Source: Escherichia coli (lineage in GTDB: Bacteria; Pseudomonadota; Gammaproteobacteria; Enterobacterales; Enterobacteriaceae). Taken from it: a stretch of DNA of 64,000 nucleotides. Within the stretch, counting starts at the first letter, position 1. Each line of letters opens with the position of its first letter. The position numbers were made by a program, and so were the translations under genes. The notes beneath the pieces were generated by a model. That model saw only the letters and a list, made by a program, of their open reading frames with translations, was not told the origin of the DNA and made no database searches. Below are positions 4,191 to 31,191 of the stretch, piece after piece. The DNA is taken from assembly GCF_003334405.1 (NCBI RefSeq), contig NZ_QOWM01000004.1, one strand, 5' to 3'.

Positions 4191-5090
4191 TTACGCAGAG
4201 AAAAAGGCGATGAGGATCGGCACTAACAGGCTAAGAATAAAACCGTGAACAATTGCCGCCGGGACCATATCCAGCCCGCCAGTACGTTGAAGAACGGGCA
4301 GGGTGAAATCCATTGATGTGGCACCGCATAAGCCCAGTGCAGTAGAGCGGCTGCGGCGAATCAGCCCAGGGATCAACATAATAGCAATCAGTTCACGGGC
4401 CAGATCATTAAAAAACGCCGCGCTCCCGATTACCGGACCAAAAGATTCGGTCAATAAAATACCGGAAAGAGAATACCAGCCGAAACCGGAGGCCATTGCC
4501 AGCGCGGTATTGATGGGGAGATCAAGAATAAAGGCGTTAATTAAACCACCAATTAATGAACTGACAACCACCACCACGGCGACAATCATTCCCCGGCGAT
4601 TAAGGACAATCTGCTTTAAGGTCATGCCATTATTGCGCAACTGAATACCAACGAGGAAAAGTAGCAAAATTAACGTGTATTCACTGGCTTCGGTCGCGTG
4701 TTGTAAGAAAGCCAGTCCACTTAGACCAATGGCAAAACCAATCACTACTACGCCGCACAGTTTTAGCGACTCCAGCGCCATCGCAATACGCGACGGGAGT
4801 TTTTCTTGCTGATGGTGGTTGCGCCACGGCAGGCCTCGCTCCAGCCACATCAGGGCGGCAATATTACACAGTAAAATAACGGTAATACTGACGGCAGAAT
4901 AATGCAGAATCGCCAACAGGTTACTGGCGAGGTTATCGAGAAACGCCAGACTGATACCCATAAAAAAGAGAATAAGGTAAACCATCCAGCTTAATAGCTG
5001 ATTAATAACTTTTAACGCAGCTTGTTGGCGAAGCGGAATGAGGTAACCCACAATCAGGGGAACCAGAATGATTAACAGCCCAGAAAACAT
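4191..5090 (-). CDS. lysO: Lysine exporter, inner-membrane protein
   Basis: ORF 4191..5138; trimmed to the MFSGLLIILVPLIVGYL start (ATG at 5088-5090); highly hydrophobic multi-helix protein; position between hcp and aqpZ. Confidence 0.82.
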   Translation of the reverse strand: MFSGLLIILVPLIVGYLIPLRQQAALKVINQLLSWMVYLILFFMGISLAFLDNLASNLLAILHYSAVSITVILLCNIAALMWLERGLPWRNHHQQEKLPSRIAMALESLKLCGVVVIGFAIGLSGLAFLQHATEASEYTLILLLFLVGIQLRNNGMTLKQIVLNRRGMIVAVVVVVSSLIGGLINAFILDLPINTALAMASGFGWYSLSGILLTESFGPVIGSAAFFNDLARELIAIMLIPGLIRRSRSTALGLCGATSMDFTLPVLQRTGGLDMVPAAIVHGFILSLLVPILIAFFSA

Positions 5091-5302
5091 GAAAACCCAG
5101 TCCTTGCAAAGATGAAGTCGAAATGCGCGATGACACACTACTGAAAGCGGAAGGACGAGTAAAGTTGCAATTAAAAGGAAATGTTATGCATAAGGAGCAG
5201 TAGAGTATTCGTTTTCATTTAAAGATATTCTTGCGCTTTAATTACAAACTGCACCGATGTTGGTGGCGTCAAAATCGCCGAGGCGTTCCCTGAAGGCCGG
5301 GG

Positions 5303-5511
5303 CAGCCCACATGGATGTGGGCTGAGGGCGCGTTTTACAGGGATGTTACCTCGCGCCCGACCCGGTAGCCGTAAGGGATAAGCCGAGGGCACCGCGCAGC
5401 GGCGATTTTGTTCGCCAGAGCCCGGGGGTGCAGGGGGCGGCGGCGATTGGCCGCCCCCTGCGCGCTCCTTGCGCCAGTGGCAATATGTTGCTTAGCTCAT
5501 GAAAGGAGCGC
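5303..5511. repeat. GC-rich cluster of four consecutive palindromes / stem-loops in the lysO-aqpZ intergenic region
   Basis: Perfect inverted repeats read directly: cagcccacat-gg-atgtgggctg (5303-5324); gggcgcg/cgcgccc (5326-5358); gcagggggcggc-ggcgattg-gccgccccctgc (5430-5461, 12-bp stem); gcgctcctt/aaggagcgc (5462-5511). Confidence 0.5.
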
Positions 5512-5545
5512 AACAAGATGATGAATCAACATATAACAACATCTT

Positions 5546-5575
5546 AAAAAAAGGCCTGACATTACGCCAGGCCTT
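5546..5575 (-). terminator. Rho-independent terminator downstream of aqpZ
   Basis: 8-bp stem aaggcctg/caggcctt (5551-5558 / 5568-5575) followed on the minus strand by a U-run (plus-strand A7 at 5546-5552); starts 10 bp after the aqpZ stop. Confidence 0.7.
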
Positions 5576-5584
5576 CTGCGTTAA

Positions 5585-6280
5585 TTAATCACGCTTTTCC
5601 AGCAGGGTCCGGTAAATCAGACCACCGATAATGCCGCCGACAATTGGCACCACCCAGAAGAACCACAGTTGTTCTAATGCCCAGCCGCCCTGGAAGATAG
5701 CAACCGCGGTGCTGCGCGCCGGGTTAACAGAAGTGTTAGTCACCGGAATACTAATTAAGTGAATCAGGGTTAAGGCCAGACCAATAGCGATCGGCGCAAA
5801 ACCTGCCGGCGCGAATTTGTCGGTTGCGCCGTGGATCACCAACAGGAAACCTGCACTCAATACCAGTTCAACTACCAGCGCGGAAAGCATGGAATAACCG
5901 CCTGGTGAATGCTCGCCATAACCGTTAGAAGCAAAACCGCTGGCTGCCGCGTCAAAACCCGTTTTACCACTGGCAATTAAATACAGCAGCGCCGCTGCAA
6001 CAATACCGCCGACAACCTGGGCAATTACGTAGCCAACGACTTCTTTTGCCGGAAAACGTCCGCCAGCCCATAAACCAATAGTGACCGCCGGGTTAAAATG
6101 ACCACCAGAAATATGACCAACAGCAAAGGCCATCGTCAGAACGGTCAGACCGAACGCCAACGCCACGCCGGCAAAACCAATGCCTAATTCCGGGAAGCCT
6201 GCGGCCAGTACAGCACTACCACAGCCACCAAAAACAAGCCAGAAAGTACCAAAACATTCAGCTGCTAATTTTCTGAACAT
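5585..6280 (-). CDS. aqpZ: Aquaporin Z water channel
   Basis: ORF 5585..6286; start [19 protein letters not shown]; two NPA motifs (GGHFNPAVT and NTSVNPAR); GAGGTG Shine-Dalgarno before ATG at 6278-6280. Confidence 0.92.
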
Positions 6281-15985: not shown

Positions 15986-16073
15986 GTTCACTGCCGTACA
16001 GGCAGCTTAGAAATTCACAGGTAACATACTCCACCCGCCCACCATGTTCACTGCCGTACAGACAGATAAAATG
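15986..16073 (+). CRISPR. Orphan type I-F CRISPR remnant: two 28-bp repeats (second degenerate) flanking one 32-bp spacer; no cas genes in the window
   Basis: Repeat 1 at 15986-16013 is GTTCACTGCCGTACAGGCAGCTTAGAAA, the type I-F repeat as I recall it; spacer 16014-16045 is ttcacaggtaacatactccacccgcccaccat; repeat 2 at 16046-16073 is gttcactgccgtacagacagataaaatg; location between clpA and serW fits the known CRISPR3/4 site. Confidence 0.8.
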
Positions 16074-16116: not shown

Positions 16117-16204
16117 TGGCGGTGAGGGGGGGATTCGAACCCCCGATACGTTGCCGTATACACACTTTCCAGGCGTGCTCCTTCAGCCACTCGGACACCT
16201 CACC
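16117..16204 (-). tRNA. serW: tRNA-Ser (anticodon GGA), 88 nt with long variable arm
   Basis: Reverse complement reads GGTGAGGTGTCCGAGTGGCTGAAGGAGCACGCCTGGAAAGTG...GGTTCGAATCCCCCCCTCACCGCCA; encoded CCA end; T-loop GGTTCGAAT. Confidence 0.95.
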
Positions 16205-30953: not shown

Positions 30954-30973
30954 TACCCAATTTTTCTGAATCT

Positions 30974-30999
30974 AAAAAGCGCCTGCGGGCGCTTTTTTT
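30974..30999 (+). terminator. Rho-independent terminator downstream of serS
   Basis: agcgcc-tgcg-ggcgct hairpin followed by T7. Confidence 0.75.
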
Positions 31000-31191
31000 G
31001 TCTCCCTTTGATACCGAACAATAATTACTCCTCACTTACACGTAATACTACTTTCGAGTGAAAATCTACCTATCTCTTTGATTTTCAAATTATTCGATGT
31101 ATACAAGCCTATATAGCGAACTGCTATAGAAATAATTACACAATACGGTTTGTTACTGGAATCAATCGTGAGCAAGCTTGAGTGAGCCATT

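Follow-up and report, generated by a model that had tools for sequence, protein, structure and literature searches.

The palindrome cluster between lysO and aqpZ of Escherichia coli is TRIP1a, a copy of a known intergenic repeat whose conserved fold carries CsrA-site-like loops

We analyzed a cluster of perfect palindromes located between the genes lysO and aqpZ in a stretch of 64,000 nucleotides of Escherichia coli DNA (contig NZ_QOWM01000004.1 of assembly GCF_003334405.1), hereafter called the window. The segment is the TRIP1a copy of an intergenic repeat described earlier in E. coli, and a mismatch with the published coordinates is considered excluded. The folded structure of its family is conserved across Enterobacteriaceae and carries loops resembling CsrA sites. 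The explanation that we prefer, and regard as very probable, is that of a G+C-rich non-coding interspersed repeat of Enterobacteriaceae, structured and about 265 bp long, whose copy in the window may be a passenger.

Identification of the segment as TRIP1a

The first report of TRIP1 repeats is that of Rudd (1999); a survey by Li et al. followed in 2024 (PMC10888264). In that survey TRIP1a spans positions 915016-915281 of NC_000913.3 (266 bp), 70 bp downstream of the aqpZ stop codon and 158 bp upstream of ybjE/lysO. Searched with blastn, the segment 5250-5520 of the window aligned to positions 915017-915287 of the same record with 99.6% identity. Since window position 5250 corresponds to 915017, TRIP1a occupies positions 5249-5514 of the window and the palindrome cluster lies wholly inside it. 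The cluster had been placed in the lysO upstream region by the prediction made initially from the window sequence (hereafter the original prediction), and the element does lie 158 bp upstream of the lysO start codon.

According to the survey, K-12 harbours three copies, of which TRIP1b is partial, lacking an internal 125 bp, and TRIP1c lies in the opposite orientation; the repeats have a G+C content of 62-65% and a "double-Y" fold, with a value of -143.99 kcal/mol for TRIP1a (PMC10888264). Both TRIP1b and TRIP1c of K-12 aligned with the window copy, and in an nhmmer search with a profile of the family TRIP1c scored 273.5 bits while TRIP1b was recovered as two split matches. In coordinates, length, G+C content, position, sister copies TRIP1b and TRIP1c and stable fold, the window copy agrees with the TRIP1 described by Rudd and by Li et al.

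Further copies, whose presence in the genome was set down in the original prediction as the mark of a known repeat family, were indeed found with blastn. All 5426 complete E. coli genomes matched the segment, at a median of 3 places per genome and at up to 10, so the segment is a repeat. A repeat of the BIME or BoxC type had been suggested: the segment is an interspersed extragenic repeat as supposed, and its family is TRIP1, not REP/BIME or BoxC. It looked unannotated because the RefSeq record carries no annotation over the element.

Other E. coli TRIP1 copies are located downstream of putP, dusC, alx and copA, and homologous recombination between copies leads to large inversions between TRIP1a and TRIP1c (PMC10888264). 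For the window itself the identification is of little consequence: the segment is a named repeat for which the data support no regulation of lysO and whose documented effect is to serve as a recombination substrate for such inversions. In the literature that we searched, TRIP1 is treated only by the 2024 paper, and no description of the wider family outside E. coli was found. Our analysis extends that description by relatives in at least 10 genera, a covarying fold, CA(N)GGANG loops, doublets and a direction polymorphism of the cassette type.

Locus and predicted fold of the window copy

The window covers the hcp-lysO-aqpZ-ybjD region of E. coli, in which lysO and aqpZ are both on the minus strand, and the palindrome cluster sits within the 494-bp spacer between these two genes. 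The claim of an unusually high G+C content holds, the fraction calculated per 100 nt being 0.61-0.72 over 5250-5499 versus about 0.32-0.55 in the flanks. A distinct aqpZ terminator, from which the cluster had been set apart, is also present as a hairpin (5551-5558/5568-5575) followed by a T-run on the minus strand.

The four inverted repeats of the original prediction were all recovered at the positions it gave, each with 100% complementarity. It had overlooked a long-range outer stem (5270-5285/5395-5410) of 16 nt, 88% complementary, which encloses hairpins 1 and 2, and the extent it proposed for the cluster, although real, started too far to the right of the true left end of the unit (Table 1). 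In the predicted single-strand fold, hairpins 1 and 2 are borne on the outer stem, and hairpins 3 and 4 come after it. Folding of the segment 5260-5520 gave -144.5 kcal/mol for the plus strand (z = -5.9) and -130.6 kcal/mol for the minus strand (z = -6.25), and in both cases none of 200 dinucleotide shuffles was as good. Imperfect direct repeats of 18 nt (5285-5302 and 5410-5427, 72% identical) flank the inner 125-bp module.

Table 1. Features of the TRIP1a copy in the window (the plus strand is the strand carrying the GGA loops; MFE, minimum free energy fold)
Feature	Positions	Strand	Evidence or description
Whole TRIP1a unit	5249-5514	+	Published coordinates; family-profile nhmmer match 5248-5514
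Outer stem, 5' arm	5270-5285	+	Pairs with 5395-5410; in the MFE of both strands
Outer stem, 3' arm	5395-5410	+	Partner of 5270-5285; inverted-repeat search, MFE, covariation
Hairpin 1	5303-5324	+	Arms 5303-5312/5315-5324, 10 nt, 100%, 2 nt between
Hairpin 1 loop motif CAUGGAUG	5310-5317	+	GGA at 5313-5315
Hairpin 2	5326-5358	+	Arms 5326-5332/5352-5358, 7 nt, 100%
Hairpin 2 loop motif CAGGGAUG	5338-5345	+	GGA at 5341-5343; 28 nt past the first motif
Conserved unpaired third GGA motif AAGGGAUAAG	5373-5382	+	Family alignments
Inner 125-bp module	5303-5427	+	Missing from TRIP1b-type short forms
Hairpin 3	5430-5461	+	12-bp G+C stem 5430-5441/5450-5461, 100%, 8-nt loop
Hairpin 4	5462-5511	+	9-bp stem 5462-5470/5503-5511, GCGCUCCUU/AAGGAGCGC, 32-nt loop, 100%

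The 3' arm of hairpin 4 also holds a Shine-Dalgarno-like AAGGAG (5503-5508, plus strand), which precedes an open reading frame of 9 codons (MMNQHITTS, 5518-5547). This frame was rejected as a gene: it is not kept in other copies and was therefore treated as a chance occurrence.

Selection on base pairing

Covariation was measured on an alignment of 40 diverse copies, to which RNAalifold was applied and onto which the fold of the window copy was then projected. RNAalifold predicted 45 pairs, 31 of them with compensatory changes. In the projected window fold, 44 of the 75 pairs exhibited changes on both sides, compared with 13-21 when the pairing partners were slid by 1-3 columns; in the same comparison the covariation score was 0.271 versus 0.037-0.081 and the proportion of paired cells 84% versus 36-43%. 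None of 500 shuffles attained the observed covariation values.

The outer stem and all four hairpins are supported. The outer stem (helix 2) had 94% of its cells paired and compensatory changes in 5 of 11 pairs. Both-side changes were found in 7 of the 9 pairs of hairpin 1 (helix 7), and compensatory ones in 5 of the 7 pairs of hairpin 2 (helix 8), in 8 of the 12 pairs of hairpin 3 (helix 11), where for example one pair was GC in 22 copies and AU in 18, and in 5 of the 9 pairs of hairpin 4 (helix 12), whose counterpart in other genera is ACGUUCAC/GUGAACGU. These alignment patterns show that selection acts on the pairing of bases within a single strand, which argues against a simple duplex protein-binding site. 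No strand assignment followed from the counts of G-U versus A-C cells, which were 117 versus 83 overall and 30 versus 46 in the helices with the best support; subfamily-specific misalignment accounts for many A-C cells. Few long intergenic repeats combine a fold clearly backed by covariation with a loop motif that hardly varies, and the TRIP1 family is one of them.

Conserved loop motifs

Two CA(N)GGANG motifs separated by 27-29 nt were found at the tips of hairpins 1 and 2 in 119 of the 123 copies possessing the inner module, the second loop being unconstrained by the search pattern; the motif of the first loop was kept in all 23 copies that had not been chosen via that pattern. Variation is confined to the N positions, C, A, GGA and G being constant, and the background rate of the motif amounts to 0.14 per kb and strand in the window. 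Variants of the third GGA motif, such as AAGGAATAAG or AGGGATAAG, were detected with a regular expression in 77 of the 123 copies. The first loop reads AUGGAU and the second AGGGAU in the window; in 23 of the 119 copies the second loop is CATGGATG or CATGGACG. Both motifs cap covarying stems and match the form CANGGANG of the GGA loops of CsrA-binding RNAs.

The GGA recognized by CsrA and RsmE sits in a hexaloop, ANGGAN, that a C-G pair closes. The CsrA consensus obtained by systematic evolution of ligands by exponential enrichment (SELEX) is reportedly RUACARGGAUGU, and that of RsmE, from work on RsmE and hcnA, A/UCANGGANGU/A (Dubey 2005; Schubert 2007). The TRIP1 loops match this motif, so a transcribed plus strand would be expected to bind CsrA.

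The family beyond E. coli

A pattern scan of one genome per species yielded 96 loci in Citrobacter, Enterobacter, Klebsiella, Raoultella, Leclercia, Silvania, Atlantibacter, Pseudocitrobacter, Kluyvera and several Escherichia species, so that TRIP1 relatives are present in at least 10 genera of Enterobacteriaceae. The nhmmer search of the scanned loci with the family profile gave 143 matches, and one K. pneumoniae chromosome contained 13 TRIP1 places. The mean similarity of copies within a genome was 0.68-0.96 versus 0.665 between genomes, and for 42 of 65 copies the nearest relative was in the same genome. This greater likeness within genomes points to lineage-specific amplification or concerted evolution.

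A plasmid collection yielded Klebsiella copies of 84% identity and one Citrobacter copy of 76%, all of them in a chromosomal context. Carriage by plasmids was rejected, the matches being chromosomal segments with surrounding housekeeping genes. Records filed as plasmids, namely NZ_CP148327.1 (locus L002; L numbers are our locus handles) and several of PLSDB, carry ordinary chromosomal segments with the genes macAB, ybjD, aqpZ, lysO, hcp and poxB, and such records are probably misassembled or mislabelled replicons. A blastn search of a phage collection gave no match and no sign of a phage origin. TRIP1 copies were also seen on contigs labelled Desulfacinum, "Proteobacteria bacterium", Sporobacter and Bacillus (L018, L020, L098, L099). 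The copies at L020 and L099 resemble E. coli copies nearly base for base, and one of the off-taxon contigs is 583 bp long with a coverage of 0.7x. These contigs are likely assembly contamination, judging from their sequence, because the off-taxon copies score as high on the family profile as those of Klebsiella and E. coli.

Genomic context and doublets

Both neighbouring genes were called for 76 copies, which lay between convergent genes in 39 cases and between divergent genes in 5. In co-directional spacers the GGA strand was sense 15 times and antisense 17 times, hence without orientation bias. Adjacent copies formed 29 head-to-head doublets and no tail-to-tail one (L009 2647-3242; also L017, L063, L070, L090, L093 and others). 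The two units of a doublet are separated by an AT-rich spacer of about 70-90 bp from which both GGA strands read outward. Doublets occur outside Escherichia and in some cryptic Escherichia lineages, and head-to-head doublets of TRIP1-like elements are not described in the literature that we searched.

Klebsiella copies regularly have a REP about 50 nt upstream (L004, L005, L006, L010, L077, L078, L081). Downstream of those of Enterobacter, Leclercia and Silvania there are a conserved extension and a BoxC-like hairpin (L055, L056, L087 and others). TRIP elements are therefore part of repeat mosaics.

Allelic variation

At the aqpZ-lysO locus of strain Z1323HEC0475 the element is inverted and devoid of the inner module, with a junction running from ...GAAGGCCGGGG to GGGGCAGGGGG. 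Short alleles (TRIP1b; Z1323HEC0475, L002 at 6040-6060) join exactly at the 18-nt direct repeats, which suggests either a slippage deletion or the nested insertion of a module resembling the Rfam family TwoAYGGAY. The copy of Escherichia strain E69 has its full length but is inverted; it lies 44 nt beyond the aqpZ stop codon, lacks a terminator of the K-12 type and is set in private flanks of another sequence. From about 110 bp before the lysO start, this strain is again homologous to K-12. These roughly 110 bp adjoining lysO are conserved although the element is inverted or internally deleted in other Escherichia.

Between yohP and dusC, about 2100 genomes have an allele matching K-12 in the flanks only. 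In O25b:H4 the element at this place is reversed, 88.5% identical to TRIP1c and endowed with its own flanks. The private flanks of the alleles imply that the published "direction" polymorphism is a replacement of the whole spacer cassette and not a flip. Between alx and sstT, the place taken by TRIP1d in other strains is filled in K-12 by BoxC-like repeats; this variable spacer cassette houses repeats of different families. Each of the three polymorphic E. coli loci proved to be a cassette replacement with private flanks. The K-12 alx-sstT spacer (L107 1546-1945) reads as BoxC-like CCCTCTCCC...GGGAGAGGG...GGGGTGAGGG. We also noted that the sequence AAGATGATGAA, which follows the element, is common to the window and to the O25b allele at yohP-dusC.

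Alternative explanations

The segment is, as said, neither a REP/BIME nor a BoxC element; such an identity, or a chance cluster of palindromes in G+C-rich DNA, has a negligible probability in our estimate. TRIP1 shares with REP/BIME and BoxC an extragenic location, palindromes and a high G+C content, and its copies elsewhere adjoin REP and BoxC-like repeats. Its unit of about 265 bp, present some 3 times per genome, nevertheless differs from the hundreds of REP units of about 35 bp, and the REPs upstream of Klebsiella copies are a separate sequence; the remark of the original prediction that this is not canonical REP was borne out, the unit lacking the REP sequence. Read by eye, the interval 5249-5514 contains no CCCTCTCCC...GGGAGAGGG core of BoxC, and a chance cluster is excluded by the fold z-scores, the conservation across genera and the covariation. 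A cis-acting structured leader or riboswitch controlling lysO, also proposed initially, would fit a highly structured element 158 bp upstream of the lysO start codon. It was abandoned as very improbable: the same element lies downstream of putP, dusC, alx and copA and at unrelated loci elsewhere, the strand with the CsrA-like motifs is antisense to lysO, and the sequence next to lysO is conserved in alleles whose element is inverted (E69) or truncated (Z1323HEC0475). Moreover, the aqpZ terminator stands between aqpZ and the element, and no lysine-riboswitch or other cis-regulatory Rfam family matched the minus strand, that of lysO. No information on the lysO promoter was found in the literature that we searched.

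The unannotated small RNA of the original prediction, taken as a gene in its own right that has a promoter and a terminator, is unlikely, if less so than a lysO leader. The conserved covarying fold speaks for it, as do the doublet units reading outward from an AT-rich spacer and AT-rich -10-like hexamers such as GATAAT or AATAAT, which precede the conserved 5' end by a few bases in copies of Enterobacter, Leclercia and Silvania. Against it, a consensus scan of positions 5050-5650 detected no promoter-like or terminator-like site around the window copy, no evidence of a transcript was found, in no subfamily does the element end in a hairpin plus U-run, and the candidate -10/-35 elements are not common to the subfamilies, the -10-like hexamers being limited to one of them. 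With gathering thresholds, the covariance search of the whole window with Rfam, a check proposed in the original prediction, returned nothing at the locus; once the thresholds were relaxed, TwoAYGGAY (RF01731) alone stood out, with scores below its gathering score of 43 (30.2 bits, E = 0.016; 32.7 bits, E = 0.0031; 31.3 bits, E = 0.0063). When four Klebsiella and E. coli loci were searched together, TwoAYGGAY gave no match at E < 0.1.

A putative role that is compatible with a mobile-like repeat is that TRIP1 is, or carries, a CsrA-binding RNA module, a possibility that we hold tentatively. A plus-strand RNA of about 5265-5415 would present two ANGGAN hexaloops, closed by C-G pairs and 28 nt apart, which one CsrA dimer might bridge, with a third unpaired GGA nearby; the copies would then titrate CsrA or put neighbouring transcripts under its control. 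Consistent with this are the paired CA(N)GGANG motifs of 119 of 123 copies, equal to the CsrA/RsmE consensus, and the matches of TwoAYGGAY, a family of the same clan (CL00106) as CsrC, to the GGA strand of three diverged copies. The head-to-head doublets also direct the GGA strands outward from the AT-rich spacer, as divergent transcription would require, and published crosslinking immunoprecipitation sequencing (CLIP-seq) peaks at other loci have the same GCAUGGAUGC-type sequences. We observed in particular that CsrA CLIP-seq peaks 2, 36 and 38 (PMC5694010, Supplementary Data 1) contain GCAUGGAUGC- or AAUGGAUGC-type sequences, the same motif as in the first TRIP1 loop.

Several observations run counter to CsrA binding. 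The copies show no orientation bias (15 sense versus 17 antisense), and in the window the GGA strand is antisense to both aqpZ and lysO. No CLIP-seq peak was found at TRIP1a or TRIP1c among those of Potts et al. 2017, unannotated peaks included and both K-12 coordinate versions considered, in a data set that covers one growth condition, where expression may be low and reads derived from repeats may not map uniquely. Supplementary Data 2 gives "No" for dusC and for ybjE in all four of its yes/no columns, the header of which we did not read. The scan of 5050-5650 gave neither promoter nor terminator, no promoter shared by the subfamilies was seen by eye, the G-U versus A-C counts do not favour the plus strand, and every Rfam score is under the gathering score of 43. 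Since the evidence on expression, orientation and CLIP is not supportive, we regard this reading as possible and not as probable. No paper linking TRIP1 and CsrA was found in the literature that we searched. CsrA binding is still, in our tentative view, the best specific functional hypothesis for the conserved loops.

There remains the passenger-type repeat, which we prefer. The conserved fold and loops would then be needed for the element's own propagation or for an interaction of its single strand (RNA or single-stranded DNA), and the K-12 aqpZ/lysO copy would be a passenger without a locus-specific regulatory role. That TRIP1 behaves like the REP/BIME/ERIC class, as a non-autonomous element amplified within lineages and settling downstream of genes, has in our opinion an even chance of being right. 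A number of points weigh against this picture. A purely selfish repeat does not by itself explain a near-invariant CA(N)GGANG next to varying stems. The arms of the doublets are no recent inverted copies: they belong to two diverged types, A and B, that Citrobacter species share, so that what is kept is the fold of each arm and not a giant palindrome. The ends of singleton elements are not complementary and no terminal inverted repeats were seen in them; at three E. coli loci the allele junctions revealed no target-site duplication and no clean empty site. Singletons therefore show neither the terminal inverted repeats nor the target-site duplications of miniature inverted-repeat transposable elements (MITEs), although doublets do have inverted arms. 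We know of no enzyme mobilising TRIP1. In the absence of inverted termini, duplications and empty sites, mobility is deduced from the distribution of the copies only. Each E. coli TRIP1 type, finally, is found at a fixed locus (PMC10888264), so that recent transposition is not evident in this species.

Comparison with known systems

TRIP1 resembles REP/BIME and REPIN by its extragenic and palindromic nature, its enrichment downstream of genes and between convergent ones, its mosaics and its inverted doublets of fixed polarity. Unlike REP/BIME, it is about 265 bp long instead of about 35 bp, has few copies per genome, does not contain the REP sequence and forms doublets with diverged arms; to our knowledge it has no partner of the RAYT type. 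ERIC elements possess terminal inverted repeats and a TA target. Like ERIC/IRU, TRIP1 is at least 100 bp long, strongly structured, intergenic, shared between genera and found in either orientation, but its singletons show neither terminal inverted repeats nor a TA target.

With the CsrB/CsrC/Rsm sponges and McaS, TRIP1 has in common GGA in hairpin loops with flanking CA...G. It differs from them in having only 2-3 motifs per unit and no UvrY-type promoter, terminator or CLIP-seq signal. TwoAYGGAY was proposed as a CsrA-binding small RNA by Gardner and Eldai (PMC4333381). TRIP1 may share with that family the arrangement of an outer stem enclosing two adjacent hairpins, with CAUGGAUG-like loops and an AG linker. 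It departs from it by its scores, all below 43, by the second loop of the window copy, AGGGAU and not AYGGAY, and by two further hairpins and additional 5' sequence.

The TRIP1 family might conceivably consist of dispersed CsrA-binding modules, an enterobacterial relative of TwoAYGGAY that buffers or wires the Csr system, although we would not put this above a minority view. With a copy number of about 3 in E. coli and at least 13 in Klebsiella, its contribution to that system would differ between species. If the motif recruits CsrA, a repeat family would be linked to a global post-transcriptional regulator; the orphan TwoAYGGAY motif would in that case gain a tractable E. coli relative, for which a binding test would be simple.

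Other features of the window

A residual array of clustered regularly interspaced short palindromic repeats (CRISPR) was noticed at positions 15986-16065 (plus strand), adjoining tRNA-Ser(gga) at 16117-16204 (minus strand). It consists of a complete repeat of 28 nt, GTTCACTGCCGTACAGGCAGCTTAGAAA (Rfam CRISPR-DR4, 50.1 bits), a spacer of 32 nt and a second, truncated repeat, GTTCACTGCCGTACAGACAG. It looks like the known remnant of the E. coli type I-F array near serW. Finally, the Rfam family STnc130 matched over its full length at positions 30967-31101 (minus strand), with 140.1 bits for a gathering score of 55.

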